Origin: Escherichia coli
GTDB taxonomy: Bacteria; Pseudomonadota; Gammaproteobacteria; Enterobacterales; Enterobacteriaceae
Direction: 5' to 3' (one strand)
Assembly (NCBI RefSeq): GCF_029227855.1
Contig: NZ_CP074356.1
Length of the DNA stretch: 64,000 nucleotides
Below the pieces are notes generated by a model. It was not told where the DNA came from. It made no database searches and was given only the letters and a program-made list of their open reading frames with translations. This document shows positions 1,963 to 59,129 of the stretch, piece after piece; positions within the stretch are counted from its first letter, which is position 1, and every line of letters starts with the position of its first letter. Made by a program: the position numbers and the translations under genes.

Positions 1963-2685
1963 TTAAACGATGCGGCAGGCGTCGGCTTCCCAGCGGTAAC
2001 CGACGCCGTAAACGGCACGGATAAAGGACTGTTCGGCGTCGAGAGATTCCAGCTTGCGACGCAGGTTTTTAATGTGGCTGTCGATGGTGCGGTCGGTTAC
2101 TACGCGGTAGTCGTCATAAAGATGATTGAGCAATTGCTCGCGGGAGAACACTTTTCCTGGTTCATGAGAGAGCGTTTTCAGCAGACGAAATTCCGCAGGC
2201 GTCAGGTCAAGCATTTTTCCGCGCCATGAAGCCTGAAAACGACCTTCGTCGATAATCAACGGGCTTTCAGCATCCTGTTGCTGCAACTCACGCTGCGGTT
2301 TGCAACGGCGCAAAATGGTTTTGACGCGCGCTACCACTTCCCGTGGGCTGTACGGCTTGCAGATATAATCATCTGCGCCAATTTCCAGCCCCAGCAGGCG
2401 GTCGATCTCTTCGATTTTTGCTGTCACCATCACGATCGGAATGTCAGAAAAACGACGAATTTCCCGACACAGCGTCAGGCCATCGGTGCCAGGGAGCATC
2501 AGATCCAGCAGGATCAGATCCGGTGGTGTCTGGCGCACATACGGCAGTACCTGATCGCCGTGGCTAATCAACGTTGGCGCATAGCTCGCAGCACGCAGAT
2601 AATCAATGAGTAACTGCCCCAGCTTCGGTTCATCTTCCACGATCAAAATACGCGGTGTGTTTTCGTCGATTGGTAACTCGGTCAT
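1963..2685 (-). CDS. baeR: OmpR-family response regulator BaeR
   Basis: 240 aa; receiver domain ([13 protein letters not shown]...[14 protein letters not shown]) plus winged-helix output domain; 4-nt overlap with baeS upstream. Confidence 0.95.
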
Positions 2686-4085
2686 ACTTCTCTCTGTAAA
2701 TCCCGTTCCAGCGGTAACTCTACTGTAATGCTTACCCCGCCAAAAGGCGAATGGGCAGCAATAATGCGGCCATTATGGGCTTCAACAATGTTCAGGCAAA
2801 TCGCCAGCCCCAGCCCGGAACCGCCGCTGGCGCGGTTGCGGGAGCCTTCGGCGCGATAAAAACGTTCAAACAATTTTTGTAGCTGATCGTCACTGACGCC
2901 CGGCGCGCTGTCGGCAAAGGTCAGTCGCACCGTTTTGTCGTGCTGCTCGGCAGAGATTTTCAGGCTGCCGCCGCTGTCAGTGTAGCGCAGGCTGTTTTCA
3001 AGTAAGTTATTGAATAACTGCATTAAACGGTCGCGATCGCCAAATACGGTAATACTGTCTGGCAGGGAGAATTGCAGTTTCAGGCCACGGCTGGCAAATC
3101 GTTCGCGAAATGCGCCGCCCGCTACTTCCAGCAGTGGGATCAAATCTACCGGTGCTTTTTGATAGGCGAGAGCGCCTTCATCAGACATCGACAACTGATG
3201 GAGATCGTCAACCAGTTTGGTCAGTGTACCGACCTCCGCCTGTAAAGACGCCACCGTCTCCGGCGTGAATTTACGCACGCCATCCTGAATGGCTTCCAGT
3301 TCACCGCGCAGCACCGCTAATGGCGTACGCAGTTCGTGAGAAATATCGGCCATAAAATCGCGGCGCATTTGCTGGTTTTTCTCCAGCGTGCTGGCGAGCT
3401 GGTTGAAGTCCTGCGCCAGTTTGCCCAGTTCATCTTCACTGGTGGGCGTCACGCGGGTTGTGAAATCGCCCGCCGCCAGTTTGTGCGTGCCGTCCACCAG
3501 CCGTTTGACCGGGGCCAACAGACCACGCGCCAGCAGAAAGGTGGCGAGCGCCGCGAGTAACGTTGCCAGGGCGACAATCAGCCAGCTGGTTTGCCGCTGT
3601 TGTTTATCGAAATTGATATCAGTATTGCGGGTCAGTCGCTCAACAGGGGAGGCAATCACCGCACCCACTTCCGCACCGTTGACCAGAATGGGTCGCCGTG
3701 TACCGTCAGGTGGAATCGGCGCTCGCGGACCAACCAGCACCTTGTTGTTTTGATCAACCACCCAGAACTGAGTACGCCAGCCGTGCGGCGGCATACCCGG
3801 GCCGGGTTTATCTTCCGAATTATCGTGTTCAAATGAACGCAGGATCTGAAAGACAAAGCGATCGTTGTTGCGCAGGAAGCGCCAGTTACCATGCTGCGCA
3901 TACTGCTCGCCAAGCGCATCACTTAACAGCTGTAATCGCTGTTCATTGCCGTGTTTGATGTAATCAATAAAGCCACGCTCAAAACTGATACGCACCGCCC
4001 AGTGCATACTGATCAGCAAGACAATGCAGGTGGCGAAAATCGCCAGAAACAGTTTGCCGGTAATACCAGGTCGCCAGAACTTCAT
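2682..4085 (-). CDS. baeS: Sensor histidine kinase BaeS
   Basis: 467 aa; N-terminal TM segments, H-box ([24 protein letters not shown]) and HATPase G-boxes (GGSGLGLAI). Confidence 0.95.
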
Positions 4086-27029: not shown

Positions 27030-28613
27030 TCACACCTCGTACTCCATCTCGCCATCCTTATGCAGCGGAATAATCTGCACCTTCTGCACGCGATGGCTTT
27101 CCACCTGCAACGTTTTGAGCAAGTAATCCCCTACCTGAACTTCTTCGCCAGGTTTTGGAATACGCTGCAAATATTCCATCAGCAGCCCGGCAATGGTGTG
27201 ATATTCGCGTTTCTCATCCAGCGGTAGCGGCACATATTGCACCAGATCTTCCAGCGGCATATGACCATTCGCCGTCCAGGAACCGTCCGCATTTTTCTGA
27301 ATATCATGGCGGGCGTCGATCTCTTCCACTTCGTTCGGTAAGTTACCGGCAATGGTTTCTGTGACGTCACTTAATGTCACAATCCCTTCCACTGAACCAA
27401 ACTCATCCACCACAAAAGCAAAGTGCGTGCGGGCATTACGGAACTGCTCCAGGGCTGGTAACAACGGCAAGGTTTCCGGGAACACCAGCGGCTGGCGAAT
27501 CAACACCCGCAGGTTGAGCGGTTCGCCGCGCAGTGACTGTTGTAGCAGGTCGATAACGTGAACAACACCGAGCAAATCTTCTGCGTCATCACCGTCGGTA
27601 ACCACCAGCCGCGTATGCTGATTTCGCTCCAGCAACTGGCGGATCTCGTCTTCCGGCGCGTTGAGATCGATATGCTCAATATCGTGGCGCGACGTCATAA
27701 TGCTGCTGACGGTACGCTGATTAAGATTAAGGACCCGCTCAATCATCCGCCGTTCCTGCGGGTTAAAGATCTGCTGGTTACCATGATCCACCAGCATGGA
27801 CGCGGTTTCGGCGTCCAGTTCCGCATCTTCTTTTTGCCCGCTAAGCAGGCGCATTACCGCTTCGGTAGTCCGCTGGCGCAGCGTCTGGTTAGCGGAAAGA
27901 AAACGTCGCCGGTTAAAGATAGCCAACTGATTGAGCGCCTCGATCATCACCGAGAAACCAATGGCAGCGTACAGGTAGCCTTTCGGAATGACGAAGCCGA
28001 AACCTTCCGCCACCAGGCTAAAGCCAATCATCAACAGGAAACTTAAGCAGAGTATGACGATGGTCGGGTGGCTATTAACAAACTGAGTTAACGGCTTGCT
28101 GGCCATCAACATCAGGCTGATAGCGATAACGACGGCGGCCATCATGACCAGTAAATGGTCGACCATTCCGACGGCGGTAATCACCGAGTCGAGTGAGAAG
28201 ATGGCGTCCAGCACCACAATTTGCGTCACCACCCCCCAGAACTTCGCACCTTTGCGTTGCGTGGGGTTATTGCTGTCTTTCCCTTCCAGCCGTTCGTTCA
28301 ACTCCATCGTGGCTTTGAACAACAGGAAGAAACCACCAAACAGCATGATTAAGTCGCGGGCGCTAAAGGTAAACGAGCGGAAGCTGAACAGTGGTTGCGT
28401 CAGGGTGACCAGCCAGGAGATTGACGCCAGCAGTAACAGGCGCATTAACATTGCCAGCAGCAGCCCGGTAACTCGTGCGCGGTCACGCTGCTTCGGCGGT
28501 AGTTTTTCGGCGAGGATGGCAATAAAGACCAGGTTATCAATGCCGAGGACCAGTTCGATCACAATCAGCGTGATTAACCCGGCCCAGATAGACGGATCGG
28601 CAATCCATTCCAT
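27030..28613 (-). CDS. yegH: TerC-family membrane protein with CBS/CorC domains YegH
   Basis: 527 aa from ATG at 28613 ([30 protein letters not shown], TerC motif); C-terminal CBS pair and CorC domain. Confidence 0.9.
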
Positions 28614-29044
28614 AGTAAGTACAAAACCTATTCGTTGTATGACAAATGTCACAATTCGATCATGGATAAATCAGGGCAAAAATGCAATGTTACGGCACTA
28701 TTTATCTCACATTATTTGAGGATTATAACATCGCATTATCCCTGAATTAAAAGTGGTAATAATAAAATATTATTTAAGAAATATCGCATATAGATACGCC
28801 GTATTAAATATTGTCAACATAAAGAAACTCCTAAAAAATACCACACATGACACTTAATATAATTCTTAAAAATAGCCAATTGCCGATTTGTTACCTTGCC
28901 TGCAATTCCGTTAGCTGTAACACTTCCTCCTGCATTATTGTAGAGCTAATATTCAATTACCATAATGCCACCTTATATCTGGAAAATTAATATCCGGAAT
29001 AACGCTTTTTCATAAACGACTGCGTTAGAAAATCTAAGCTAAAT

Positions 29045-29083
29045 CAGTGTATTGGTAGCTAAAAAGCCAGGGGCGGTAGCGTG
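29045..29083 (+). promoter_or_regulatory. JUMPstart element with ops (GGCGGTAGCGTG, RfaH recruitment) in the colanic acid operon leader
   Basis: CAGTGTATTGGTAGCTAAAAAGCCAGGGGCGGTAGCGTG matches the 39-bp JUMPstart consensus; ops core at 29072..29083, about 180 bp upstream of wza. Confidence 0.7.
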
Positions 29084-29261
29084 TCTGGATGCCTGAAAGA
29101 CCAGTCTGAATTATTCTTTCAATAGCCTGCGGATGAAATCAATTTTTTTAGGACTGATGCCAGTTAAATTTTTATTCAATTAACTGCAAGGTAAATGTGC
29201 ATGGCGACATTGCTATTAATAGTGCACAGGATAATTACTCTGCCAAAGTGATAAATAAACA

Positions 29262-30401
29262 ATGATGAAATCCAAAATGAAATTGATGCCATTATTGGTG
29301 TCAGTAACCTTGATAAGCGGTTGCACAGTACTTCCGGGCAGCAATATGTCTACGATGGGTAAAGACGTCATCAAACAGCAGGACGCTGATTTCGATCTCG
29401 ACAAAATGGTGAATGTTTATCCGTTGACCCCGCGCCTGATTGATCAATTACGCCCACGCCCCAACGTAGCGCGCCCCAATATGACGCTGGAAAGCGAGAT
29501 CGCGAATTACCAGTATCGCGTCGGGCCGGGGGACGTTCTTAATGTCACCGTCTGGGATCACCCGGAGCTCACCACGCCAGCCGGTCAGTACCGCAGCTCC
29601 AGCGACACCGGCAACTGGGTACAGCCTGACGGCACCATGTTCTACCCGTATATCGGCAAGGTTCACGTCGTGGGGAAAACGCTCGCTGAAATCCGCAGTG
29701 ATATTACCGGGCGCTTAGCGACGTACATCGCTGATCCGCAGGTGGACGTTAATATCGCCGCCTTCCGCTCACAAAAGGCCTATATCTCCGGTCAGGTGAA
29801 TAAATCCGGTCAACAGGCGATCACCAACGTGCCACTGACCATTCTCGATGCCATCAACGCCGCAGGTGGCCTGACCGACACCGCTGACTGGCGCAACGTG
29901 GTGCTAACACACAATGGTCGTGAAGAACGCATTTCTTTGCAGGCGCTGATGCAAAACGGCGACCTCAATCAGAACCGACTGCTTTATCCTGGCGATATTC
30001 TCTACGTGCCGCGTAATGATGATCTGAAAGTGTTTGTGATGGGTGAAGTGAAAAAACAGAGCACCCTGAAAATGGACTTTAGCGGCATGACCCTGACTGA
30101 AGCCCTGGGCAATGCTGAAGGCATCGACATGACCACCTCCAACGCCAGCGGCATCTTTGTCATTCGTCCGCTGAAAGGCGAGGGCGGGCGTAACGGCAAG
30201 ATTGCCAATATCTATCAGCTGGATATGTCCGATGCCACGTCGCTGGTGATGGCGACAGAATTCCGCCTGCAACCTTATGACGTGGTGTATGTCACCACCG
30301 CACCGGTTTCCCGCTGGAACCGTCTGATCAATCAGTTGCTGCCAACTATTAGCGGTGTCCGTTACATGACGGATACAGCCAGCGACATTCATAACTGGTA
30401 A
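29262..30401 (+). CDS. wza: Colanic acid outer membrane export lipoprotein Wza
   Basis: 379 aa; lipoprotein signal [21 protein letters not shown]. Confidence 0.95.
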
Positions 30402-30406
30402 TCGTC

Positions 30407-30850
30407 ATGTTTAACAACATCTTAGTTGTCTGCGTCGGCAATATTTGCCGTTCCCCGACGGCGGAACGCTTACTGCAACGTTATCACCCGGAGCTAAAAG
30501 TGGAGTCCGCTGGACTCGGCGCGCTGGTCGGAAAGGGCGCTGATCCTACCGCTATCAGCGTCGCCGCAGAACATCAACTGTCTCTGGAAGGTCATTGCGC
30601 ACGGCAAATCAGCCGCCGTCTGTGTCGCAACTACGACCTGATTCTGACCATGGAAAAGCGCCATATCGAACGCTTATGCGAGATGGCACCGGAGATGCGC
30701 GGCAAAGTGATGCTGTTTGGTCACTGGGATAACGAATGTGAAATCCCCGATCCGTATCGCAAAAGCCGGGAAACGTTTGCAGCGGTGTACACATTACTTG
30801 AACGGTCTGCCCGCCAGTGGGCGCAGGCATTGAACGCAGAGCAGGTATAA
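30407..30850 (+). CDS. wzb: Low-molecular-weight protein-tyrosine phosphatase Wzb
   Basis: 147 aa; CX5R P-loop VCVGNICRSPTAE. Confidence 0.95.
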   Translation: MFNNILVVCVGNICRSPTAERLLQRYHPELKVESAGLGALVGKGADPTAISVAAEHQLSLEGHCARQISRRLCRNYDLILTMEKRHIERLCEMAPEMRGKVMLFGHWDNECEIPDPYRKSRETFAAVYTLLERSARQWAQALNAEQV

Positions 30851-30852
30851 GA

Positions 30853-33015
30853 ATGACAGAAAAAGTAAAACAACATGCCGCTCCGGTAACGGGCAGTGAT
30901 GAAATCGATATTGGTCGCCTGGTCGGCACCGTCATTGAAGCGCGCTGGTGGGTGATTGGCATCACCGCCGTATTTGCCCTCTGTGCCGTGGTTTACACCT
31001 TCTTCGCCACGCCGATTTATAGTGCCGACGCACTGGTACAAATCGAGCAAAACAGCGGCAATTCGTTAGTGCAGGACATTGGTTCGGCATTAGCCAACAA
31101 ACCGCCAGCATCGGACGCCGAGATCCAGTTGATTCGTTCGCGTCTGGTGCTTGGTAAAACGGTGGACGATCTCGACCTCGATATTGCAGTGAGCAAAAAC
31201 ACGTTCCCGATTTTCGGTGCGGGCTGGGATCGCCTGATGGGACGCCAGAACGAGACGGTAAAAGTGACCACCTTTAACCGCCCGAAAGAGATGGCGGATC
31301 AGGTGTTTACGCTTAATGTGCTGGACGATAAAAACTACACTCTGAGCAGCGATGGCGGCTTTAGCGCCCGTGGGCAAGCGGGCCAGATGCTGAAAAAAGA
31401 AGGCGTCACACTGATGGTTGAAGCCATTCACGCCAGCCCGGGCAGTGAGTTTACCGTCACCAAATACTCCACGCTGGGGATGATCAACCAACTGCAAAAC
31501 AGCCTGACGGTAATGGAGAACGGCAAAGACGCAGGCGTACTGAGCCTGACTTATACCGGTGAAGATCGCGAACAGATCCGCGACATTCTTAACAGCATCG
31601 CTCGTAACTATCAGGAACAAAATATTGAGCGCAAATCGGCGGAAGCGTCGAAAAGCCTCGCTTTCCTCGCGCAACAGTTACCGGAAGTACGTAGCCGCCT
31701 TGATGTTGCCGAAAACAAACTGAATGCCTTCCGTCAGGATAAAGATTCTGTTGATCTGCCGCTGGAAGCGAAAGCGGTGCTCGATTCGATGGTGAACATC
31801 GACGCGCAGTTGAACGAACTGACCTTTAAAGAGGCGGAAATCTCCAAGCTGTACACTAAAGTTCACCCGGCGTACCGCACGCTGCTGGAGAAACGGCAGG
31901 CGCTGGAAGACGAAAAAGCCAAACTGAACGGGCGTGTAACGGCGATGCCGAAAACCCAGCAGGAAATTGTCCGTCTGACCCGCGATGTCGAGTCTGGTCA
32001 ACAGGTCTATATGCAACTGCTGAATAAAGAGCAGGAGCTGAAAATCACCGAAGCCAGCACCGTCGGCGATGTGCGCATTGTTGACCCGGCAATCACCCAG
32101 CCTGGCGTGCTAAAACCGAAGAAAGGGCTGATTATCCTCGGCGCGATTATCCTTGGCCTGATGCTCTCTATCGTGGGTGTGCTGCTGCGCTCGTTGTTTA
32201 ATCGCGGCATCGAAAGCCCGCAGGTGCTGGAAGAACACGGTATCAGCGTCTATGCCAGCATCCCGTTGTCGGAATGGCAGAAAGCGCGCGATAGCGTCAA
32301 AACCATCAAAGGGATTAAACGCTATAAACAGAGCCAGCTACTGGCGGTGGGGAATCCAACCGATCTGGCGATTGAAGCCATTCGCAGTCTGCGTACCAGT
32401 CTGCACTTCGCGATGATGCAGGCACAGAACAATGTGTTGATGATGACAGGGGTTAGCCCGTCAATCGGTAAAACCTTTGTCTGCGCCAACCTGGCGGCGG
32501 TGATCAGCCAGACCAATAAACGGGTGTTGTTGATCGACTGCGATATGCGCAAAGGCTACACCCACGAGCTGTTGGGCACTAATAACGTTAATGGCCTGTC
32601 GGAAATTCTGATTGGTCAGGGCGATATTACTACCGCTGCTAAACCGACCTCTATTGCCAAATTTGACCTGATCCCGCGCGGTCAGGTACCGCCAAATCCT
32701 TCTGAACTGTTGATGAGCGAACGCTTTGCCGAACTGGTGAACTGGGCGAGTAAAAACTACGACCTGGTGTTGATTGATACGCCGCCGATTCTGGCAGTGA
32801 CCGATGCCGCAATTGTTGGTCGTCATGTCGGAACCACGTTAATGGTGGCGCGTTATGCGGTCAACACATTGAAAGAAGTGGAAACCAGTCTGAGCCGCTT
32901 TGAGCAAAACGGTATTCCGGTGAAAGGGGTGATTCTGAACTCCATCTTCCGCCGCGCCAGCGCGTATCAGGATTATGGCTATTACGAATACGAATATAAG
33001 TCGGACGCGAAATAA
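30853..33015 (+). CDS. wzc: Tyrosine autokinase / polysaccharide co-polymerase Wzc
   Basis: 720 aa from ATG at 30853 (MTEKVKQHAAP...); Walker A GVSPSIGKT and C-terminal Tyr-rich tail YQDYGYYEYEYKSD. Confidence 0.95.
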   Translation: MTEKVKQHAAPVTGSDEIDIGRLVGTVIEARWWVIGITAVFALCAVVYTFFATPIYSADALVQIEQNSGNSLVQDIGSALANKPPASDAEIQLIRSRLVLGKTVDDLDLDIAVSKNTFPIFGAGWDRLMGRQNETVKVTTFNRPKEMADQVFTLNVLDDKNYTLSSDGGFSARGQAGQMLKKEGVTLMVEAIHASPGSEFTVTKYSTLGMINQLQNSLTVMENGKDAGVLSLTYTGEDREQIRDILNSIARNYQEQNIERKSAEASKSLAFLAQQLPEVRSRLDVAENKLNAFRQDKDSVDLPLEAKAVLDSMVNIDAQLNELTFKEAEISKLYTKVHPAYRTLLEKRQALEDEKAKLNGRVTAMPKTQQEIVRLTRDVESGQQVYMQLLNKEQELKITEASTVGDVRIVDPAITQPGVLKPKKGLIILGAIILGLMLSIVGVLLRSLFNRGIESPQVLEEHGISVYASIPLSEWQKARDSVKTIKGIKRYKQSQLLAVGNPTDLAIEAIRSLRTSLHFAMMQAQNNVLMMTGVSPSIGKTFVCANLAAVISQTNKRVLLIDCDMRKGYTHELLGTNNVNGLSEILIGQGDITTAAKPTSIAKFDLIPRGQVPPNPSELLMSERFAELVNWASKNYDLVLIDTPPILAVTDAAIVGRHVGTTLMVARYAVNTLKEVETSLSRFEQNGIPVKGVILNSIFRRASAYQDYGYYEYEYKSDAK

Positions 33016-33023
33016 CGAGATCC

Positions 33024-33082
33024 GCTGTCGGATGCGATGCTGACGCATCTTATCCGACCTCCGTTCACGCCGCATCCGGCAA
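33024..33082. repeat. REP-like palindromic unit(s) (possible BIME)
   Basis: CGGATGCGATGCTGACGCATCTTATCCGACC ... CGCCGCATCCGGC between wzc and wcaA. Confidence 0.35.
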
Positions 33083-33143
33083 CAGAACCCGTAAACAAGC
33101 TTATAAACCGGCAGAACATCTCGACACTCCGGGAGAACAACCT

Positions 33144-33983
33144 ATGAAAGACAATCCGCTGATCTCAATCTATATGCCGACCTGGAATCGCCAACAACTG
33201 GCGATTCGGGCGATAAAATCGGTCCTGCGCCAGGACTATAATAACTGGGAGATGATCATCGTGGATGATTGCTCCACCTCCTGGGAACAACTGCAACAGT
33301 ACGTCACCGCCCTCAACGATCCGCGTATTACTTACATTCACAACGACATAAACAGCGGGGCGTGCGCGGTACGTAACCAGGCGATTATGCTGGCGCAAGG
33401 GGAATACATCACCGGGATCGATGATGATGATGAATGGACGCCCAACCGCTTGAGCGTCTTCCTCGCCCATAAACAGCAACTGGTCACACACGCCTTTTTG
33501 TACGCTAACGACTACGTTTGCCAGGGCGAAGTCTATTCCCAACCAGCAAGTTTGCCGCTATATCCCAAATCGCCGTATTCACGCCGCCTGTTCTATAAAC
33601 GCAATATCATTGGCAATCAGGTCTTTACCTGGGCGTGGCGTTTCAAAGAGTGTTTGTTTGATACCGAACTGAAAGCGGCACAGGATTACGACATCTTCCT
33701 GCGGATGGTGGTGGAGTATGGCGAACCGTGGAAAGTGGAAGAGGCGACGCAGATCCTGCATATCAATCACGGCGAAATGCAGATCACCTCGTCACCGAAA
33801 AAATTCTCCGGATACTTCCACTTTTACCGTAAGCACAAAGACAAATTTGACCGCGCCAGCAAAAAATATCAGCTGTTTACCCTCTACCAGATCCGCAATA
33901 AACGCATGACCTGGCGCACTTTGCTGACGCTGCTGTCGGTGCGTAACGGCAAACGTCTGGCTGATGGTATTCGGGGGCGCTAA
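33144..33983 (+). CDS. wcaA: Colanic acid glycosyltransferase WcaA (GT2)
   Basis: 279 aa; GT2 signature ISIYMPTWNRQ...DDCS. Confidence 0.9.
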   Translation: MKDNPLISIYMPTWNRQQLAIRAIKSVLRQDYNNWEMIIVDDCSTSWEQLQQYVTALNDPRITYIHNDINSGACAVRNQAIMLAQGEYITGIDDDDEWTPNRLSVFLAHKQQLVTHAFLYANDYVCQGEVYSQPASLPLYPKSPYSRRLFYKRNIIGNQVFTWAWRFKECLFDTELKAAQDYDIFLRMVVEYGEPWKVEEATQILHINHGEMQITSSPKKFSGYFHFYRKHKDKFDRASKKYQLFTLYQIRNKRMTWRTLLTLLSVRNGKRLADGIRGR

Positions 33984-33985
33984 AG

Positions 33986-34474
33986 ATGCTGGAAGATCTG
34001 CGCGCCAACAGCTGGAGTTTACGCCCGTGCTGCATGGTTCTTGCCTATCGCGCCGCTCATTTTTGTTCGGTGTGGCGCAAAAAGAACGTTCTCAACAATA
34101 TTTGGGCGGCCCCGCTGCTGGTGCTGTATCGCATTATCACCGAATGCTTTTTCGGTTATGAAATCCAGGCAGCCGCAACCATTGGTCGCCGCTTTACTAT
34201 CCATCACGGTTACGCCGTAGTGATCAATAAAAACGTGGTTGCGGGGGATGATTTCACCATTCGCCACGGCGTCACTATCGGCAATCGTGGTGCCGATAAC
34301 ATGGCATGTCCACACATTGGCAACGGCGTCGAACTCGGTGCCAACGTCATTATTCTTGGTGATATCACGCTTGGTAACAACGTCACCGTGGGCGCGGGCA
34401 GCGTGGTGCTCGACTCTGTCCCGGACAACGCGCTGGTGGTGGGAGAAAAAGCGCGAGTGAAGGTAATTAAATGA
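33986..34474 (+). CDS. wcaB: Colanic acid acetyltransferase WcaB (hexapeptide-repeat)
   Basis: 162 aa; left-handed beta-helix hexapeptide repeats. Confidence 0.9.
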   Translation: MLEDLRANSWSLRPCCMVLAYRAAHFCSVWRKKNVLNNIWAAPLLVLYRIITECFFGYEIQAAATIGRRFTIHHGYAVVINKNVVAGDDFTIRHGVTIGNRGADNMACPHIGNGVELGANVIILGDITLGNNVTVGAGSVVLDSVPDNALVVGEKARVKVIK

Positions 34475-35688
34475 ATATTCTGCAATTTAATGTGCGACTG
34501 GCGGAAGGCGGTGCGGCAGGTGTGGCGTTAGATCTCCACCAGCGAGCACTGCAACAGGGGCTGGCGTCACATTTTGTCTACGGCTACGGCAAAGGCGGCA
34601 AAGAGAGCGTCAGCCATCAGAACTATCCGCAGGTCATCAAATATACGCCGCGGATGACCGCGATGGCGAATATTGCTCTGTTTCGTCTGTTTAATCGCGA
34701 TCTGTTTGGCAATTTCAATGAGTTATATCGCACCATTACTCGCACACCGGGTCCGGTGGTCCTGCATTTTCATGTGCTGCACAGCTACTGGCTAAATCTT
34801 AAGAGCGTGGTGCGCTTTTGCGAAAAGGTGAAAAACTATAAACCGGACGTCACTCTGGTCTGGACGCTGCACGACCACTGGAGCGTTACCGGACGCTGCG
34901 CCTTTACCGACGGTTGTGACGGCTGGAAAACAGGCTGCCGGAAATGCCCGACCTTAAATAATTATCCGCCGGTGAAGATTGATCGCGCACACCAGCTGGT
35001 GGCGGGCAAACGCCAGTTATTCCGTGAGATGCTGGCGCTGGGCTGTCAGTTTATTTCCCCCAGCCAGCATGTGGCTGATGCTTTCAATAGTCTGTACGGT
35101 CCAGGGCGTTGCCGGATTATCAATAATGGCATTGATATGGCAACCGAAGCGATTCTGGCGGACTTGCCTCCGGTGCGCGAAACTCAGGGCAAGCCGAAAA
35201 TCGCGGTGGTAGCGCATGACCTGCGTTACGACGGCAAGACTAACCAGCAACTGGTGCGTGAGATGATGGCGCTGGGCGACAAAATCGAACTACATACCTT
35301 CGGTAAGTTCTCGTCGTTCACCGCTGGCAACGTGGTTAATCACGGCTTTGAAACTGACAAGCGCAAGTTGATGAGCGCGCTCAATCAGATGGATGCGCTG
35401 GTATTCAGTTCTCGCGTCGATAACTACCCACTGATTTTGTGTGAGGCGCTATCGATTGGTGTGCCGGTGATTGCCACCCATAGCGACGCGGCACGTGAAG
35501 TGTTGCAAAAATCCGGCGGTAAAACCGTCAGCGAAGAAGACGTGCTGCAACTGGTGCAGTTAAGCAAACCGGAAATCGCGCAGGCGATATTTAGTACCAC
35601 GCTGGCTGAGTTCAGCCAACGCAGCCGCGTCGCCTACAGTGGACAACAGATGCTGGAGGAGTATGTCAACTTCTATCAGAATCTGTAG
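34471..35688 (+). CDS. wcaC: Colanic acid glycosyltransferase WcaC
   Basis: 405 aa; position and sequence consistent with WcaC. Confidence 0.9.
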   Translation: MNILQFNVRLAEGGAAGVALDLHQRALQQGLASHFVYGYGKGGKESVSHQNYPQVIKYTPRMTAMANIALFRLFNRDLFGNFNELYRTITRTPGPVVLHFHVLHSYWLNLKSVVRFCEKVKNYKPDVTLVWTLHDHWSVTGRCAFTDGCDGWKTGCRKCPTLNNYPPVKIDRAHQLVAGKRQLFREMLALGCQFISPSQHVADAFNSLYGPGRCRIINNGIDMATEAILADLPPVRETQGKPKIAVVAHDLRYDGKTNQQLVREMMALGDKIELHTFGKFSSFTAGNVVNHGFETDKRKLMSALNQMDALVFSSRVDNYPLILCEALSIGVPVIATHSDAAREVLQKSGGKTVSEEDVLQLVQLSKPEIAQAIFSTTLAEFSQRSRVAYSGQQMLEEYVNFYQNL

Positions 35689-36880
35689 CTACCTGCTGCT
35701 GCCGCTGATTTACCTGTTGGTTAACGTCAAAATCGCCCAGCTTGGCGAAAGTTTCCCCATCACCATCGTCACTTTTTTACCCGTCTTGTTATTGCTGTTT
35801 TTAGAACGCATCAGCGTTAAAAAATTGATGATTGCCTTAGGGATTGGCGCGGGACTCACGGCGTTTAACTACCTGTTTGGTCAGTCGTTGGATGCCAGTA
35901 AATACGTCACTTCAACCATGCTGTTTGTCTATATTGTGATCATTATTGGCATGGTGTGGAGTATTCGCTTTAAAACGATTTCGCCCCACAACCACCGCAA
36001 GATATTACGCTTTTTTTATCTGGTGGTCGGGTTGGTGGTGGCGCTGGCGGCGGTGGAGATGGCGCAAATTATCCTCACCGGTGGCAGCAGTATTATGGAG
36101 TCGATTTCAAAATATCTGATTTACAGCAACAGCTATGTACTGAATTTCATTAAATTCGGCGGCAAGCGCACGACAGCACTTTATTTCGAACCGGCATTTT
36201 TCGCTCTGGCATTAATCTCAATTTGGCTCAGCATCAAACAGTTTGGTATCAAAACCCCTAAAACCGATGCTATGATTCTCGCAGGGATAATATTATCCGG
36301 ATCGTTTTCAGGGGTTATGACCTTTATCCTGTTTTATTTGCTGGAGTGGGCATTTCAATATCTGAATAAAGAGGCGATTAAGAAAAAGTTACCGTTAGCA
36401 TTGATTTCTCTGGCTGTATTCCTGGTTGGTGTGGTAATTGCATTTCCTTATATTTCCACCCGTCTGGGCGATTTAGGTACGGAAGGATCGTCATCATATT
36501 ATCGTATTGTCGGTCCGCTGGTGATGGTCGGTTATTCTTTGACCCATATTGACGGTGTAGTCAGATTTGGCTCACTTTATGAATATGTCGCATCATTCGG
36601 AATATTTAACGGTGCGGATGTCGGAAAAACCATAGACAATGGTTTGTATCTGCTGATTATTTATTTTTCCTGGTTCGCGGTGTTTTTATCACTGTGGTAC
36701 ATGGGGAAAGTGATAAAAATGATGATCAACGCTTTTGGTGATAACCGCAATTTTCGCGTGCAATTATATCTTTTTACTCCGGTATCGCTGTTTTTTACCG
36801 GTTCGATATTTAGCCCGGAATATGCATTTTTAATCGTCTGTCCGTTTATTTTGCGAAAAGCGTTAAATATTACGAGGTAA
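35663..36880 (+). CDS. wcaD: Colanic acid polymerase WcaD
   Basis: 405 aa from ATG at 35663 ([22 protein letters not shown]...); polytopic membrane protein. Confidence 0.9.
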
Positions 36881-52006: not shown

Positions 52007-52900
52007 ATGACGAATTTAAAAGCAGTTATTCCTGTAGCGGGTCTTGGGATGCATATGTTGCCTGCCACTAAGGCGATTCCCAAAGAGATGCTACCCATCG
52101 TCGACAAGCCAATGATTCAGTACATTGTTGACGAGATTGTGGCTGCAGGGATCAAAGAAATCCTCCTGGTAACTCACGCGTCCAAGAACGCGGTCGAAAA
52201 CCACTTCGACACCTCTTATGAATTAGAATCTCTCCTTGAGCAGCGCGTGAAGCGTCAACTGCTTGCGGAAGTGCAGTCCATCTGTCCTCCGGGCGTGACC
52301 ATTATGAACGTGCGTCAGGGCGAACCTTTAGGTTTAGGCCACTCCATTTTATGTGCACGACCTGCTATTGGTGACAACCCATTTGTCGTGGTGCTGCCAG
52401 ACGTTGTGATCGACGACGCGAGTGCCGACCCGCTGCGTTACAACCTTGCTGCCATGATTGCGCGCTTCAACGAAACGGGCCGCAGCCAGGTGCTGGCAAA
52501 ACGTATGCCGGGTGACCTCTCTGAATACTCTGTCATCCAGACCAAAGAGCCGCTGGACCGTGAAGGTAAGGTCAGCCGCATTGTTGAATTTATCGAAAAA
52601 CCAGATCAGCCGCAGACGCTGGACTCAGACATCATGGCCGTTGGCCGCTATGTGCTTTCTGCCGATATTTGGCCGGAGCTAGAACGCACTCAGCCTGGTG
52701 CATGGGGACGTATCCAACTGACAGATGCTATTGCCGAACTGGCGAAAAAACAGTCCGTTGAAGCCATGCTGATGACCGGCGACAGTTACGACTGCGGTAA
52801 AAAAATGGGTTATATGCAAGCGTTCGTGAAGTATGGACTACGCAACCTGAAAGAAGGGGCGAAGTTCCGTAAAGGGATTGAGAAGCTGTTAAGCGAATAA
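52007..52900 (+). CDS. galF: UTP-glucose-1-phosphate uridylyltransferase-like regulatory subunit GalF
   Basis: 297 aa from ATG at 52007 ([30 protein letters not shown]). Confidence 0.95.
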
Positions 52901-53157: not shown

Positions 53158-53196
53158 CAGTACTCTGGTAGCTGTAAAGCCAGGGGCGGTAGCGTG
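53158..53196 (+). promoter_or_regulatory. JUMPstart element with ops (GGCGGTAGCGTG) upstream of the O-antigen cluster
   Basis: CAGTACTCTGGTAGCTGTAAAGCCAGGGGCGGTAGCGTG, 39 bp; ops core at 53185..53196, about 100 bp upstream of the first O-antigen gene. Confidence 0.75.
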
Positions 53197-53297: not shown

Positions 53298-54362
53298 TTG
53301 CACTTAAAGAAAACATATCAATTAAATTATCATACTATGCTTATTTACAATACAATATTTGTCTTTTTATCATTTCTTGCACTTTTAGATTTAAGTCATA
53401 AAAAAAATTTGTTATTTTTTTTATTTCCTTGTTTTATATTACTACTGTTAACTGCTATTCGTGGTAATGGAGGAGATGATTTTTATGTGTATGAAAAATA
53501 TTTTAACGCTCTTCCTAATGAAATTTTTAACTATGGATATGGTTATTATAGTTTAAATATGTTTGTTAAAAATTTTGGAGAGTATCCTTTTTTTATTATC
53601 ATTTCATCAATAATATGCATAACTCTTCAGGCAATTTTTATTTATCGTGAGACTGAAAAACCAACTCTGGTTTTGTTTTTATTTTATTCAACTAGCTTTT
53701 TATGGTTGGATTTTATTTTAATTAGGCAGTCAATTTCCGTTGGTTTTTTTATTTTGGCAATATCATTTTTCAAAAATAATAAAAAAATTTTTGCCTGTCT
53801 GTTTTTGATTCTATCTTCATTATTTCATGAGACCGCTATTTTTGCTGGAGTAGTTTTTTATATTTTATACAGAGCCGAGAAGGCAGGTTTTCTTTTTACA
53901 ATTGGCTCGGTATTAATTATTGCACCATTTTTATCTGATATAATCACTATCATAAATGATATGACGATAAAAAATAATAATATAACTCTCTATCTGGAGC
54001 AGCGTACCTTACCAAGCATTGCAAATGTAATTGAGTTAACAATAGCATTTGTTGCATTTTATATAATTAATAAAAATTCCGTGTTTAGAGAGAGTAATGA
54101 GTATAAAATATATAAAAGTATACTATATTCTTCACTATGCATACTATTATTGTCTTATACAATCCCATCATTGGCTAGATTCCTAGAATTTTTTCGTTTT
54201 TTTTACTTCATTTTAGTAGTTAGAATGCTAATGCAATTTAATGTGAGAAGTAGATATCTTTTTTTTGTAATTATACTAGCGTACTGTTTTATGAGACTTA
54301 ATAGCTTCATAAATCAATTTGATTCTGGTTTTGATTATATTTATAATGGAAAAATACTGTGA
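53298..54362 (+). CDS. wzy: Polytopic membrane protein, candidate O-antigen polymerase Wzy (EpsG-like)
   Basis: 354 aa, very hydrophobic with multiple predicted TM segments, AT-rich codon usage; first gene after galF. Assignment as Wzy rather than Wzx is a judgement from size and composition only. Confidence 0.5.
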   Translation: MHLKKTYQLNYHTMLIYNTIFVFLSFLALLDLSHKKNLLFFLFPCFILLLLTAIRGNGGDDFYVYEKYFNALPNEIFNYGYGYYSLNMFVKNFGEYPFFIIISSIICITLQAIFIYRETEKPTLVLFLFYSTSFLWLDFILIRQSISVGFFILAISFFKNNKKIFACLFLILSSLFHETAIFAGVVFYILYRAEKAGFLFTIGSVLIIAPFLSDIITIINDMTIKNNNITLYLEQRTLPSIANVIELTIAFVAFYIINKNSVFRESNEYKIYKSILYSSLCILLLSYTIPSLARFLEFFRFFYFILVVRMLMQFNVRSRYLFFVIILAYCFMRLNSFINQFDSGFDYIYNGKIL

Positions 54363-55228
54363 CTATATTATTTTCTGTTATTACTCCTACCTATAATAGG
54401 GCAGATGAGTTAAGCTCATTGTTCAAAAGTCTTAATAATCAAGAGGGTATCGAATTCGAATGGGTGATAATTGATGATGGTTCTGAAGATCATACACAAC
54501 AACAAGTTAATGACTTCAAAAAACATAATAAAAACATCACAGATATAAAATATTTTTATCAAGAGAATAAAGGTAAAAATTCTGCTGTAATTAGAGGGAT
54601 TCAGAATGCTTCCGGCGATTATATTGTGGTGATTGATAGCGATGATTATTTATTGGATGATGCTTTAATAAGAGTAAAAAATATATTAGATGAAGAGAGT
54701 GTTAATGGCGATGATAAAATAATTGGCATTTCAGGTGTTAAAGTTAAAAGTGATTTCACACCTGTAAGTTATATTAGCAACTCTTCGGCATTGCGAATGA
54801 GTCATTATGAGTGGTTTTATAAGTTTCAGCGGTTAGGTGATCGGATTGACTTTTATAAAGCCCGAGTGCTTAAAGAGAAAATATTTAATGCATTTCCAAA
54901 GGAAAAGTTTATTACAGAAGACGCATATTGGTTGGACCTCGTTGGGGAAAAAATTTTCATAAATGAACCGTTATTAGTAATAAAATATTTAGAGGGAGGG
55001 CTTAGTTCAAGTTACTCATTACTCCTGCGAAACAGTCCTTTTGGAACATCATATTATTATTATATTCTATTAATTAATGCTGATAATTTTAAAACAAAAC
55101 TTAAAGCATCATTATTGATGATGTACTATATATTTGTTACCATATTAAAAAATAGTAATATAGTAATTGGGTTATTGTCACTCATGTTATTTCCAATCTT
55201 ATGTATAATAAAATTCTTTCGAAGCTAA
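54359..55228 (+). CDS. Glycosyltransferase family 2
   Basis: 289 aa; MTILFSVITPTYNRADEL...WVIIDDGSEDHT (GT2 DXD region). Confidence 0.8.
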   Translation: MTILFSVITPTYNRADELSSLFKSLNNQEGIEFEWVIIDDGSEDHTQQQVNDFKKHNKNITDIKYFYQENKGKNSAVIRGIQNASGDYIVVIDSDDYLLDDALIRVKNILDEESVNGDDKIIGISGVKVKSDFTPVSYISNSSALRMSHYEWFYKFQRLGDRIDFYKARVLKEKIFNAFPKEKFITEDAYWLDLVGEKIFINEPLLVIKYLEGGLSSSYSLLLRNSPFGTSYYYYILLINADNFKTKLKASLLMMYYIFVTILKNSNIVIGLLSLMLFPILCIIKFFRS

Positions 55229-56406
55229 GAAACACTATTCTTCCTTGTTTCACTCTAGGAACGTCGACGATTTTTTTCTTTGCGATAGGTTTCTTCTTTG
55301 GTATAAATGAAAAATCTGATTTTATATTATTTACGATTACTTTACTTTCAACCATTGGAACTATTCTTCAAATTTCTTGGTATGGATTGTTACCTCGTTT
55401 GAGTTCGAGTTCAAGCTTAAAATTTTTAGGTTATATTATTTCTAATGGTTTTATCTACTGTTTGATCATAAATACCCTACCATTTGTGATTTTAACTCTG
55501 AACTTTACAAACTTTTTTTTTGCAGGGTGTCTCTACTCTTTATTTTTCCAACTGCATCAGTATCTTAAGAATGTTTTTGTTTATCTTGGGCGGCTTAAAG
55601 CATTTTATATTTTTGATGCCATCGGCTATGCCATATGTGTTATAAGTATTACTGTGTTCCAAAAATATCTATTACATTCAAACCCTCAGGATTTATTTGT
55701 TCTGCTTTCGTTATGTTGGCTTTTAATAGTAATTGGTGAGGTCGTACATCTTAAACTATATATTAATTATGACATATCTGTAAAGCCTGTTTATGTATGT
55801 ATTATTCCAACATGGAAAACAAGGATTGCAAACAGTGGTTTTATTGTGAAAGATCTTTTAACTGCGTATGCGCTTAATATACTTGCGCCGGTAGGCGGTT
55901 TAACTATATATTCATACGCAAGTAAGATTTCAACAGCTGTTTTTCAATTATTCTCTCAATATAAAGTAAATGCTTGGGTGGGCAGCATAAGAAAAAAAAG
56001 GTTAAGTGAAGTAGAATACGGTGATATAAAAAAAGTGTCATTATCTTCTTCAATTGATTTTTGTATTTTTCAGATCGTTGCATGGCTTTGTATCTTACCT
56101 ATTATATTATATAATGGCACAAATATAAATATTGAATGGTATGTATTAAGTATTATTACTGGTGGATTACTATACTTGATACAATCAATGGAACAGCCTT
56201 ATGCTAGATTTATTTATATGTCACGACATTTTACCGATATTGCCATCGCAGATGGAATAAATTTTATTATTTATATGGTTTTCTTTTCATATGGATTGTT
56301 AATGTTAAATGTATATTATCTATTTTTAGGTATTATATTAGCTCAATTATGTTCACTAGTTACTTATTCTTTATTTTGCAAGAGGTTGTTTAGGAATGAT
56401 ACCTAA
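55201..56406 (+). CDS. wzx: Polytopic membrane protein, candidate O-antigen flippase Wzx
   Basis: 401 aa with about 10-12 hydrophobic segments; the ORF overlaps the upstream GT2 gene by 28 nt, so the true start is uncertain. Confidence 0.5.
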   Translation: MYNKILSKLRNTILPCFTLGTSTIFFFAIGFFFGINEKSDFILFTITLLSTIGTILQISWYGLLPRLSSSSSLKFLGYIISNGFIYCLIINTLPFVILTLNFTNFFFAGCLYSLFFQLHQYLKNVFVYLGRLKAFYIFDAIGYAICVISITVFQKYLLHSNPQDLFVLLSLCWLLIVIGEVVHLKLYINYDISVKPVYVCIIPTWKTRIANSGFIVKDLLTAYALNILAPVGGLTIYSYASKISTAVFQLFSQYKVNAWVGSIRKKRLSEVEYGDIKKVSLSSSIDFCIFQIVAWLCILPIILYNGTNINIEWYVLSIITGGLLYLIQSMEQPYARFIYMSRHFTDIAIADGINFIIYMVFFSYGLLMLNVYYLFLGIILAQLCSLVTYSLFCKRLFRNDT

Positions 56407-57052
56407 AATAATACATTACTGTTGGTTCGGGGGCGGGGATAAACCTGCTTTAGTTAAAAAATGTATGGGGACATGGGAAAAAGTCTTGCCTGGTTGGGAT
56501 ATTATTGAATGGAACGAAGATAATTCGCCAGTATCAGTTCCTTATGTAAAAAATGCGTTAGAAGATAAACGATATGCATTTGCTGCTGATTATGTAAGAT
56601 TCTATGCGCTAAAAACCATGGGAGGAGTTTATCTTGATACTGATATGGAATTGATCAAAGATATTTCTCCGCTTTTGAATAATAAATTCTTTACAGCGAA
56701 AGAATCAGAGGAGCTTATTAATGCAGCAATAATGGGGAGTGAAAAAGATGGGAGATTTGTCAATTTAGTAATCCAAGAATTACAATTGCGCACAGGACAT
56801 ACTTACGAATCTATACCAAAAATACTTACTGATATATTTAATACAGGAAATGGATTTAAAGATGAAACAACCATTTATGATAAGGAATATTTTTATCCTT
56901 ATAATCCCTTTGATAATAAACGAAATGAAGTTAAACAACTTTTCTATTGTGATATAACTCCTCATACTTATGCCATTCATCACTGGCAACAAAGTTGGCA
57001 CTATACATTTCTTGAACGGGTTATTAACAGAATAAGGATGCTTATAAAGTGA
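56396..57052 (+). CDS. Glycosyltransferase (sugar-transferase DXD family, GT32-like)
   Basis: 218 aa; MIPKIIHYCWFGGG...YLDTDMELIKD, typical of the Gly_transf_sug family. Confidence 0.7.
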   Translation: MIPKIIHYCWFGGGDKPALVKKCMGTWEKVLPGWDIIEWNEDNSPVSVPYVKNALEDKRYAFAADYVRFYALKTMGGVYLDTDMELIKDISPLLNNKFFTAKESEELINAAIMGSEKDGRFVNLVIQELQLRTGHTYESIPKILTDIFNTGNGFKDETTIYDKEYFYPYNPFDNKRNEVKQLFYCDITPHTYAIHHWQQSWHYTFLERVINRIRMLIK

Positions 57053-57819
57053 GTGGAAATAAATTAATAAGCATAATTATGGCATCAAATAAAATAGATG
57101 AGTTTCTACCTCTGGCAATAAACTCAATTCTTGAACAAACATATCAAAATATCGAAGTGATTTTTGTTGCTAATGGTGATAAAGCTCACTGTATTAGTTT
57201 GTATATAAAAAATTTTTTTAAAGATGAGCGAATCAAAATTTATGAAACACCAATAGGCCAACTATCACATGCGCTTAACCTCGCTATTTCTAACGCATCG
57301 GGTGATTATATTGCCCGCATGGATGCTGATGACATTAGTTTACCTGAGCGATTAACTAAACAGTTGGAATATTTAAGGTCACATAATTTAGATATGGTAG
57401 GTTCGGATATAATTCACATAGATACAAATGGAGAAGTTATTGGGATTAAACATTATCCCAAAGGGTTAAATAAAATTAACAAACAATTGTATTTTAGGAA
57501 TACTTTTTCGCATAGCACTATACTAATCAAAAAAAAAATACTCATTTCAGCGAGAGGCTACAATGCTGGATTTAATTCAGAGGACTATGATCTCTGGTTA
57601 AGATTAAGACGGAAGAATATCAAATGGGATAATATGGAGGAATGCCTCTTAAAATATCGTATACATAGTGCATCTACACAAAGGAAGAGATTGGGTTACG
57701 CCGAAGTCGCGGGTTATTCTCTACGTGAATTTTTATTACGTTTCTCATTTATTGGTATTTTTTCTGTTTTAATTCATATTGTTAAAGTTTATATTAAATC
57801 ATCTTCTCATGAAGAATGA
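57049..57819 (+). CDS. Glycosyltransferase family 2
   Basis: 256 aa; ISIIMASNKIDEFLPLAINSILEQTYQNIEVIFV...DADD. Confidence 0.8.
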   Translation: MSGNKLISIIMASNKIDEFLPLAINSILEQTYQNIEVIFVANGDKAHCISLYIKNFFKDERIKIYETPIGQLSHALNLAISNASGDYIARMDADDISLPERLTKQLEYLRSHNLDMVGSDIIHIDTNGEVIGIKHYPKGLNKINKQLYFRNTFSHSTILIKKKILISARGYNAGFNSEDYDLWLRLRRKNIKWDNMEECLLKYRIHSASTQRKRLGYAEVAGYSLREFLLRFSFIGIFSVLIHIVKVYIKSSSHEE

Positions 57820-58010: not shown

Positions 58011-59129
58011 ATGAAAATACTTCTAATAGGAAACCTCTCTGATACTATTGTATTATTCAGAGAGAAGTTAATAAGAGAGTTGATTAAAAAAAATATCACG
58101 GTTTATACATTAACGATGGATTCTAATCAAGAAAACTTCAACATCATTGCCAGCTACGGGGCCAAACCTGATTCATACTCTTTTTCTCGTTCAGGTACAA
58201 ATCCTTTTTCTGATATTTGGGATACATACAAATTAAATAAAAAAATAAAAAAAATAAAACCTGACGTTGTTCTTTCTTTTTTTCCAAAACCTGTTATTTA
58301 TGGTTCTTTAGCTGCTAAAATAGCAGGGGTGAAAAAAATATTTAGTCTCTTGGAAGGACTTGGTTTTTGCTATACGAATAATTCTAGTCCAATTAGTCTC
58401 AAAAGGAAGATATTAAAATGTATACAAACAATGCTATACAGAATTAGCTTGCCATTATGTAATAAAGTTTTTTTCTTAAACAAGGATGATTTTAATGATC
58501 TCATTATTGATAATAAAATAACCATAAAGAATTATGAAATAATTGGTGGAATTGGTGTTAATTTAGAAGAGTACAGTTATAAGCAACCAAAGATTGATAA
58601 AATACATTTTGGGATGGTTTCGCGATTACTAGTCGAGAAAGGTATTCGCGAATTTGTTTTGGCCGCGAGCCAGGTGAAAAAAAAATTTCCTGAGGTCGAA
58701 TTTAGTATTGCTGGCGCAATTGATGATAATCCTGGTGGTATAACCGAAGATGAGATAAAAAAATGGGAATCAGAGGGGGTTGTCAAATTTTTAGGTCAAG
58801 TTTCTAATGTTAAAAGTTATTTATCTAATATCTCTGTTTTCGTTTTGCCATCTTACCGAGAAGGCGTACCAAGAAGTACTCAAGAAGCGATGGCTATTGG
58901 GCTTCCAATAATTACAACTAATGTTCCTGGTTGTCGTGATACAATTATCAATATGGTAAATGGAATCATGATCCCACCATTTGATATTCAGTCTCTAGCG
59001 GACGCAATGGTATTTTTTATACAAAACCCTCAGAGTATAACAATAATGGGTAGAGAAAGTAGAATAATTGCAGAGAAAAAGTTTAATGAAATAGAAGCCG
59101 CGAATAAATTACTTAAATTAATAATCTAA
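58011..59129 (+). CDS. Glycosyltransferase family 4 (GT-B, retaining)
   Basis: 372 aa; C-terminal EX7E-type region PSYREGVPRSTQEAMAIGLPIITTNVPG. Confidence 0.8.
   Translation: MKILLIGNLSDTIVLFREKLIRELIKKNITVYTLTMDSNQENFNIIASYGAKPDSYSFSRSGTNPFSDIWDTYKLNKKIKKIKPDVVLSFFPKPVIYGSLAAKIAGVKKIFSLLEGLGFCYTNNSSPISLKRKILKCIQTMLYRISLPLCNKVFFLNKDDFNDLIIDNKITIKNYEIIGGIGVNLEEYSYKQPKIDKIHFGMVSRLLVEKGIREFVLAASQVKKKFPEVEFSIAGAIDDNPGGITEDEIKKWESEGVVKFLGQVSNVKSYLSNISVFVLPSYREGVPRSTQEAMAIGLPIITTNVPGCRDTIINMVNGIMIPPFDIQSLADAMVFFIQNPQSITIMGRESRIIAEKKFNEIEAANKLLKLII

Follow-up and report, generated by a model that had tools for sequence, protein, structure and literature searches.

Does the gene for an O-antigen membrane protein really begin inside the glycosyltransferase gene that precedes it, and if so, how did this arrangement arise and how is the second gene translated? 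The question is raised by a junction in a 64,000-nt stretch of Escherichia coli DNA, referred to below as the window, in which the 3' end of a family-2 glycosyltransferase gene (GT2; 54359..55228, plus strand, 289 aa, RefSeq WP_000153788.1) and the 5' end of a gene for a 401-aa membrane protein (wzx; 55201..56406, plus strand, RefSeq WP_001389120.1) share the 28 nt from 55201 to 55228. A preliminary description of the window had pointed out this overlap between different frames and the lack of an in-frame Met soon after the annotated wzx start, and had named the two products as a GT2 and a Wzx/Wzy-type membrane protein of an O-antigen cluster. These points hold. The sequence, the list of open reading frames and the RefSeq coordinates all agree on the shared stretch, the next in-frame Met is residue 331, and the gene identities are borne out by the Pfam match of GT2, the RefSeq names and the predicted fold of Wzx. 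The explanation that we consider likely, taken as a whole, is that the overlap is real, that wzx starts at ATG 55201, that the arrangement originated when an ATGA junction became ATAA, and that wzx is translated without any Shine-Dalgarno (SD) motif and with weak coupling to GT2.

Between 52 and 60 kb, the window carries the O-antigen genes of E. coli serogroup O23, arranged as galF (52007-52900), an EpsG-family wzy (53337-54362), GT2, wzx, a GT32 gene (56396-57052), a second GT2 gene (57049-57819), a GT4 gene (58011-59129), galE and gnd. The intergenic region between galF and wzy carries an exact match to the ops element (GGCGGTAG; 53185..53192, plus strand). The first GT2 gene starts with GTG and overlaps the wzy stop by 4 nt; its product matches PF00535 (E 1.6e-27) and has a hydrophobic C-terminal region that ends in a short basic tail. 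The GT2-wzx region is 100% identical in 18 complete E. coli genomes, in which RefSeq/PGAP gives both genes identical coordinates and calls WP_001389120.1 an 'O23 family O-antigen flippase'.

The 28-nt stretch (55201..55228, plus strand) is dual-coding, with wzx read in the -1 frame of GT2. Read as GT2, it specifies the final 8 residues and the stop (C-I-I-K-F-F-R-S-*, with the TAA at 55226-55228); read as wzx, it supplies the first 9 codons (M-Y-N-K-I-L-S-K-L). The A of the wzx start codon (ATG, 55201..55203, plus strand) is the third base of the GT2 codon for Leu281, and the TG supplies the first two bases of the TGT codon for Cys282 (55202-55204). At the other end of the overlap, the tetranucleotide CTAA (55225..55228, plus strand) consists of wzx codon 9 (CTA) and the next A, and contains the GT2 stop. 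Upstream, translation in the wzx frame is blocked by a TAA at 55156-55158; no ATG, GTG or TTG occurs in that frame between this stop and 55201, and ATG 55201 is the first canonical start after it.

An overlap of this length is not especially unusual. In surveys of same-strand overlaps, about 45% are 4 nt long, about 15% are 1 nt long, and more than 80% are under 30 bp (PMC3887535, PMC12548453). Overlaps in the ATGA phase are short in 87% of cases, and the long ones form a minority class (PMC3887535). Among the annotated genes of the window, overlaps of 4 nt (nine pairs), 1 nt, 11 nt, 26 nt and 28 nt were found. This count was made via the annotation of NZ_CP019256.1, which is offset by 584 nt in the colanic-acid region, and the wcaC/wcaD junction was placed directly in the window. 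That junction, 20 kb away, is a second pair of glycosyltransferase and membrane-protein genes, with an overlap of 26 nt (35663-35688). The 28-nt overlap therefore stands at the edge of the length tail and belongs, as an ordinary case, to a known class; RefSeq already annotates it in this form.

Both partners in the overlap are real protein-coding genes with many homologues, GT2 through PF00535 and Wzx through its MOP-superfamily fold. Pfam and NCBIfam scans of the window Wzx and its 10 close homologues, at E values up to 5, returned nothing relevant, and for that reason the family assignment is drawn from the predicted fold and from remote members that match MurJ. The family is small and isolated, with 17 members found in a profile search of 1.84 billion representative proteins. 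Two remote members (P0144 and P0146) exceed the gathering score of the Pfam MurJ model, a link that extends to the window Wzx in a transitive sense only. An AlphaFold2 model of Wzx built on a 15-sequence alignment has a pLDDT of 86.3 and a pTM of 0.82. In a Foldseek search against the PDB, its best matches are structures 9g9n and 9g9p (E 3e-7 to 8e-7, TM 0.64-0.67) of the Lipid III flippase WzxE; next come MurJ (7waw and 6nc6, TM 0.72) and also MATE transporters, and all 36 of the matches at E<=1e-3 are MOP members. Given the predicted MOP fold and the EpsG-type wzy in the cluster, the assignment of the 401-aa protein as a Wzx-type flippase appears sound at the level of fold and context.

The starts of database homologues are set by gene callers, and the junction DNA was therefore inspected directly in 8 diverged loci, which together with the window make up 9 lineages. 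The lineages and homologues come from Citrobacter freundii, C. portucalensis, C. sedlakii, Salmonella enterica subsp. arizonae and houtenae, Morganella morganii and metagenomes, in addition to Escherichia. The Wzx homologues are 43-67% identical to the window protein; for the full-length ones the alignment begins at Met1, with K4, I5 and K8 nearly invariant. In all 9 lineages, down to a Wzx identity of 43%, the stretch from the ATG through the GT2 stop measures exactly 28 nt, and in each the ATG is the first canonical start 3' of an in-frame stop. The adjoining junctions drift in the same loci: the 4-nt overlap of wzy with GT2 goes through 0 to a gap of +3 nt, and wzx overlaps the next gene by 11, 8 or 4 nt. 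With the same 28-nt geometry in nine of nine lineages, the overlap is, as judged by comparative sequence analysis, more than a chance juxtaposition of reading frames. Judged by its conservation, ATG 55201 is the start of wzx, which confirms the start of the O23 gene as given in RefSeq.

The conservation extends to the bases of the overlap and to both of its reading frames. In a DNA alignment of GT2 and wzx, the overlap ranks about 4th most conserved among 2,070 windows of 28 nt; its mean pairwise identity is 83%, compared with 62% overall and 55-60% in the immediate flanks. The bases that are invariant across it are ATG..T..TAAAAT...T...AA..TAA. Amino acid identity in the wzx frame rises from 0.20 in the 14 codons before the ATG to 0.67-0.71 in codons 1-9, a value partly confounded by the constraint that the GT2 frame places on the same bases; further on it is 0.55. 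The GT2 frame shows a step in the other direction, from 0.63-0.67 over its last 8 codons to 0.27 past the TAA. Within the overlap both frames are conserved, at about 0.67 amino acid identity each. Some changes that are synonymous in one frame are replacing in the other, arguing that both frames are read. A change between ATT and ATC, synonymous in wzx (Ile5), swaps Phe or Leu for Ser in GT2, and a change between TGT and TGC, synonymous in GT2, alters residue 2 of Wzx. By this sequence evidence, the dual-coding junction is specific to the O23-type gene-cluster family as found in Escherichia, Citrobacter, Salmonella and Morganella.

In both frames the A/T-rich overlap specifies Lys, Ile, Leu and Phe, and its A-runs give AAA Lys codons in each. 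This composition may suit both a basic GT2 tail and a basic, 'positive-inside' Wzx N-terminus, which is perhaps why the arrangement is tolerable. At its 3' end, wzx codon 9 is CTA in E. coli and ATA in the 8 other lineages, so that xTA is found in all 9. The recurrence of ATA in 8 of 8 other lineages is only suggestive, since ATA makes up 32-60% of the Ile codons here and the lineages are not independent.

How ribosomes reach the wzx start is a separate matter. No Shine-Dalgarno sequence is found in the 20 nt before the ATG in any of the 9 lineages. In the window this stretch (55181..55200, plus strand) lies inside the GT2 coding sequence and is AU-rich, unstructured and devoid of Shine-Dalgarno complementarity. 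The energy of its duplex with the anti-SD sequence is +1.5 kcal/mol in the window and at least +0.5 kcal/mol in all 9 lineages, compared with a mean of -1.8 kcal/mol for the cluster background and -3.3 to -6.5 kcal/mol for the glycosyltransferase genes; wzy likewise has no SD. Some SD-independent mechanism is thus needed, and one might expect the overlap to have been conserved for tight translational coupling, in which a ribosome that terminates at the GT2 TAA would move back about 25 nt to the wzx ATG and so fix the stoichiometry of GT2 and Wzx. The strict conservation of overlap length fits such a role, and SD-less coupling with selection of a start 5' of the stop is documented, for example in the MS2 coat-lysis system (discussed in PMC12548453). 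However, termination-reinitiation works efficiently when stop and start are about -4 to +3 nt apart and can still be detected up to about +30-40 nt, and the GT2/wzx spacing of -28 nt lies outside this range. Coupling declines faster with growing overlap than with growing spacing and was undetectable at -25 nt in an E. coli reporter series (Tian and Salis, summarised in PMC12548453), which makes tight termination-reinitiation from GT2 to wzx doubtful. Coupling by RNA unfolding fares no better. From -30 to +30 around the wzx start, the MFE is -0.1 to -3.4 kcal/mol and the GC content 15-27% in the 9 lineages; none has inhibitory structure there, and because the start region is essentially unstructured there is nothing for upstream ribosomes to melt. 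In addition, related clusters (see below) work with 4-nt overlaps or a 2-nt gap, arguing that the pathway can do without the 28-nt form, and constraint in two frames explains the strict conservation equally well. Conservation for the sake of coupling is thus unlikely on the present evidence.

The mode of translation that we favor instead is SD-independent initiation of wzx on the AU-rich, accessible mRNA of an ops-bearing, RfaH-type operon, probably at a low level. Ribosomes translating GT2 would provide at most modest help, and classical termination-reinitiation at -28 nt is unlikely to be efficient. From its sequence match, the ops element is presumably the RfaH loading site that is typical of O-antigen operons (JUMPstart/ops). 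Ribosome recruitment mediated by RfaH is documented mainly for 5'-proximal genes. RfaH may nonetheless contribute to wzx expression, and it strongly boosts the expression of SD-less reporters (PMC3905879).

The origin of the overlap can be approached through more distant relatives. The nearest outgroup flippases are 22-26% identical to Wzx and are encoded in syntenic clusters, with the order EpsG-type wzy, GT2, flippase, GT32, GT2 and GT4. The GT2/flippase junction is a 4-nt NTGA overlap in three of these, GTGA in L015 and ATGA in L016 and L017, and a gap of +2 nt in the fourth (the P0132 contig). When the junction DNA is aligned on the GT2 stop, which requires no indels, the outgroup sequence 'AAA ATG A' is matched by 'AAA ATA A' in the ingroup ('AAG CTA A' in E. 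coli), and the outgroup flippase ATG falls on ingroup wzx codon 9. One base, G or A, decides between the two architectures: with ATGA there is a start and a TGA stop, and with ATAA no start and a TAA stop.

These alignments suggest that the overlap probably arose by a single base change that destroyed an older start codon, and we propose that the tetranucleotide at 55225..55228 is the relic of the ancestral flippase start. The ancestor would have had the canonical ATGA start/stop overlap that persists in syntenic outgroups. One G-to-A change, from ATGA to ATAA, would have cost the flippase its start (ATG to ATA, now codon 9) and left GT2 with a stop (TGA to TAA). Initiation would then have shifted to an in-frame ATG eight codons 5', within the GT2 tail, at a position that became the invariant GT2 Cys codon. 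The junction would afterwards have stayed frozen, since almost all of its bases are under constraint in two frames. Of the two recognised routes of overlap formation, one is such a replacement of the start codon, by which the downstream gene is extended 5' (PMC3887535). The N-terminus of the ingroup Wzx is just 4-5 residues longer than those of the outgroups, rather than 8, so that the model also has to assume a further indel of 4 codons between TM1 and the old start. The fuller account, in which stop-preserving start loss was followed by a long lock under dual-frame constraint that lasted through inter-genus transfer, and in which the GT2 Cys is invariant solely for the sake of its neighbor's start, is more tentative, and we give it a little less than an even chance.

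The same one-base difference can also be read backwards. The 28-nt overlap would then be ancestral, and the outgroups would have gained a downstream ATG (ATAA to ATGA) that shrank their overlap to the favored 4 nt. Short overlaps are indeed the favored class (PMC3887535, PMC12548453), and a rooted neighbor-joining tree of the flippases, which consists of two sister clades with P0138 unplaced, gives no polarity for the 4-nt and 28-nt forms. However, an ATG at the upstream position requires TG at GT2 codon 282, and Cys occupies that column in 10 of 10 ingroup proteins compared with 1 of 106 other relatives (0 of the 64 in which Pro279 is aligned). Because Cys282, the supplier of the TG, is specific to the ingroup, the upstream ATG looks derived, and the reverse order of events is quite improbable.

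A loss of the GT2 stop was considered as well. If the TGA of an ancestral ATGA had mutated to a TGY Cys codon, GT2 would have been extended by 8 more codons to the next TAA. In simulations, overlaps form more often by a 3' extension of this kind (PMC3887535); the overlap is in the ATGA phase (28 = 3n+1), and the codon that lies on the ATG is TGT or TGC, one base away from TGA. The GT2 tails effectively rule this out, leaving it a very small probability. The tail after the conserved Pro279 is 10 residues long both in the ingroup and in L015-L017, and these tails align end to end; the median in the 64 other relatives with an aligned Pro is 13.5 residues, which argues that GT2 has not been lengthened. 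Furthermore, the outgroup flippase starts align with the ingroup GT2 stop and not with the ingroup ATG.

The preliminary description had offered the possibility that the true start is a non-ATG codon further downstream; on a slightly broader form of that idea, wzx would start at a non-ATG or later codon past the GT2 stop, and the overlap would be an annotation artefact. Start mis-annotation is often behind long overlaps, and ATG 55201 has no SD to recommend it. However, the next in-frame canonical start in the window is a TTG at residue 63, use of which would remove TM1 and TM2 of the MOP fold. Candidate downstream starts are scattered by lineage (residues 12, 14, 17, 24, 43, 63 and 119), and no alternative start is conserved among the 9 lineages. 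Residues 2-9 of Wzx have an identity of 0.67, as opposed to 0.20 just 5' in the same frame, which would be hard to reconcile with a start beyond them. The idea thus has scarcely any credibility left: the alignment of homologues, which had been put forward as the way to decide the matter, begins at Met1, with the ATG invariant in 9 of 9 lineages, and so locates the Wzx N-terminus at ATG 55201 and reveals no different start outside the overlap. The other option in that description, an unusually long and translationally coupled overlap, survives in part: the overlap is real and conserved, but its length is matched too closely by the survey figures and by wcaC/wcaD to be called unusual, and the coupling is unsupported given its reported absence at -25 nt. 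Finally, the chance that a programmed -1 ribosomal frameshift in the overlap yields a GT2-Wzx fusion is negligible and the idea was rejected, for although wzx lies in the -1 frame of GT2, as such a shift needs, and A-runs occur in its A/T-rich overlap with GT2 (AAAA; GAAAAAATAA in C. portucalensis and Morganella), an X_XXY_YYZ heptamer in the GT2 frame is absent from 9 of 9 lineages, no downstream structure is predicted (MFE about 0 to -3 kcal/mol), wzx has its own invariant ATG with an in-frame stop before it, and the genes are separate in the outgroups.

The arrangement has some practical consequences. Serotyping primers, knock-outs or expression constructs that are cut at the GT2 stop would shorten Wzx by nine residues, and any edit in the final eight codons of GT2 is at the same time an edit of the Wzx N-terminus. 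The locus is also a small but well-resolved example of the way in which a 4-nt overlap can turn into a long same-strand one and become frozen, and GT2 Cys282 illustrates that an 'invariant' residue can be kept for the sake of a neighboring gene. If the start-loss route is general, it could explain some of the long ATGA-phase overlaps, which are a minority class. If the favored reading is true, a Wzx flippase can be produced with neither an SD nor close coupling of stop and start, perhaps via RfaH-linked ribosome delivery. The GT2/wzx overlap reveals no new mechanism or system; its new element lies in the reconstructed origin (stop-preserving start loss with a hitch-hiking Cys codon) and in the strict conservation of the junction across genera, and nowhere else.

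Comparison with known systems places both the protein and the junction. Like WzxE (PDB 9g9n) and MurJ, the window Wzx is an all-helical protein of about 400 aa, with a predicted fold that matches theirs at TM-scores of 0.64-0.72, and like the Wzx O-unit flippases (the polysaccharide transporter family of the MOP superfamily) it belongs to a Wzx/Wzy-dependent O-antigen cluster between galF and gnd, where it is encoded beside an EpsG-type wzy. It differs from the known Wzx and MurJ proteins in that it and its close homologues, in a small and isolated family, have no match to the Pfam Polysacc_synt, MurJ or NCBIfam models. Among overlaps, one comparable case is wcaC/wcaD of the E. coli colanic-acid cluster, in which a glycosyltransferase gene is likewise followed, with a long overlap and within a polysaccharide operon, by the gene for a polytopic membrane protein of the same pathway; there the phase is different (26 = 3n+2), and the downstream gene encodes a polymerase rather than a flippase. 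The canonical 4-nt NTGA overlap with coupling (Brown and Wade 2025, PMC12548453) has the same frame relation and operon position and is the form found in 3 of the 4 outgroups, whereas the wzx start lies 24 nt further 5', so that stop and start are apart and little or no reinitiation is predicted. A further class is that of the long unidirectional ATGA-phase (3n+1) overlaps formed by start-codon replacement or through 5' extension of the gene that lies downstream (Cock & Whitworth, 2007 and 2010, and Sabath 2008, discussed in Fonseca et al. 2014, PMC3887535). The GT2/wzx junction resembles these in being a co-directional, out-of-frame operon pair that overlaps by less than 60 nt in an AT-rich cluster, and in the replacement of the downstream start by an upstream in-frame ATG inside the neighboring gene. 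It departs from them in two respects: the change that cost the flippase its old start apparently turned the GT2 stop from TGA into TAA as well, leaving the GT2 protein as it was, and the overlap has stayed at exactly 28 nt from genus to genus, even at protein identities as low as about 43%.

The O23-type cluster also occurs outside the Enterobacteriaceae, in Morganella morganii and on a related metagenome contig (loci L009/L010 and L012). The Morganella cluster adjoins cpxA rather than lying between galF and gnd, and its GT32 gene has been relocated to the cluster end. The 28-nt junction between the family-2 glycosyltransferase gene (GT2) and the flippase gene wzx is nevertheless intact in Morganella, and its persistence despite the changed location and gene order points to movement of the cluster between genera as one unit.

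Insertion sequences are present in the O23-type clusters of several other strains. In E. coli ETEC1722 (NZ_CP122844.1, locus L002, 5288-7014), IS1B stands in place of the 3' part of wcaM, galF, wzy, GT2 and the 5' part of wzx. The same replacement is found in ETEC1720, and in three E. coli genomes in total, porcine or other. RefSeq flags wzx in these genomes as a pseudogene lacking its N-terminus, and so the O23 cluster of the IS1B-bearing strains, including ETEC1722 and ETEC1720, is presumably inactive. In Citrobacter portucalensis GCA_032191895.1 (locus L007, 1460-3159), the interval from galF to GT2 holds a gene for an IS1 transposase but no called EpsG/wzy gene. Because the otherwise near-identical locus L008 carries wzy at 2133-3158, the wzy gene of L007 has probably been disrupted by IS1.

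Within the window, the start of wzy is ambiguous when judged by open reading frame (53298-53337), with a TTG at 53298 and the RefSeq ATG at 53337. As with wzx, no Shine-Dalgarno sequence precedes wzy (anti-SD duplex +1.7 kcal/mol). In GT2, the last ~60 residues of the protein (residues ~228-289, window ~55040-55228) are strongly hydrophobic (YYYYILLI...LLMMYYIFVTIL...IGLLSLMLFPILCII), and this region is closed by a short basic tail. This pattern of hydrophobic region plus basic tail, common to the wider GT2 family, suggests that the GT2 C-terminus is a membrane anchor beside the flippase.

The ops core GGCGGTAG is present in six copies in the window, versus 1.3 expected by chance. The copy at 53185-53192 is the expected JUMPstart/ops element upstream of the O23 operon, and two plus-strand copies, at 28495 and 29072, are close to where the colanic-acid operon begins. 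The remaining copies are at 10264 and 17659 (both minus strand) and 41782 (plus strand). Comparison of window ~28000-36000 with the otherwise matching strain 13TMH22 (NZ_CP019256.1) revealed a 584-nt offset that arises at some point upstream of wcaC, a sign that the two strains differ by an indel. The colanic-acid cluster also contains a further long overlap within the window between a glycosyltransferase gene and a gene for a polytopic membrane protein, namely the 26 nt (35663-35688) shared by wcaC (34471-35688) and wcaD, the latter starting at ATG 35663 according to RefSeq or at GTG 35639 if the longest open reading frame is taken.
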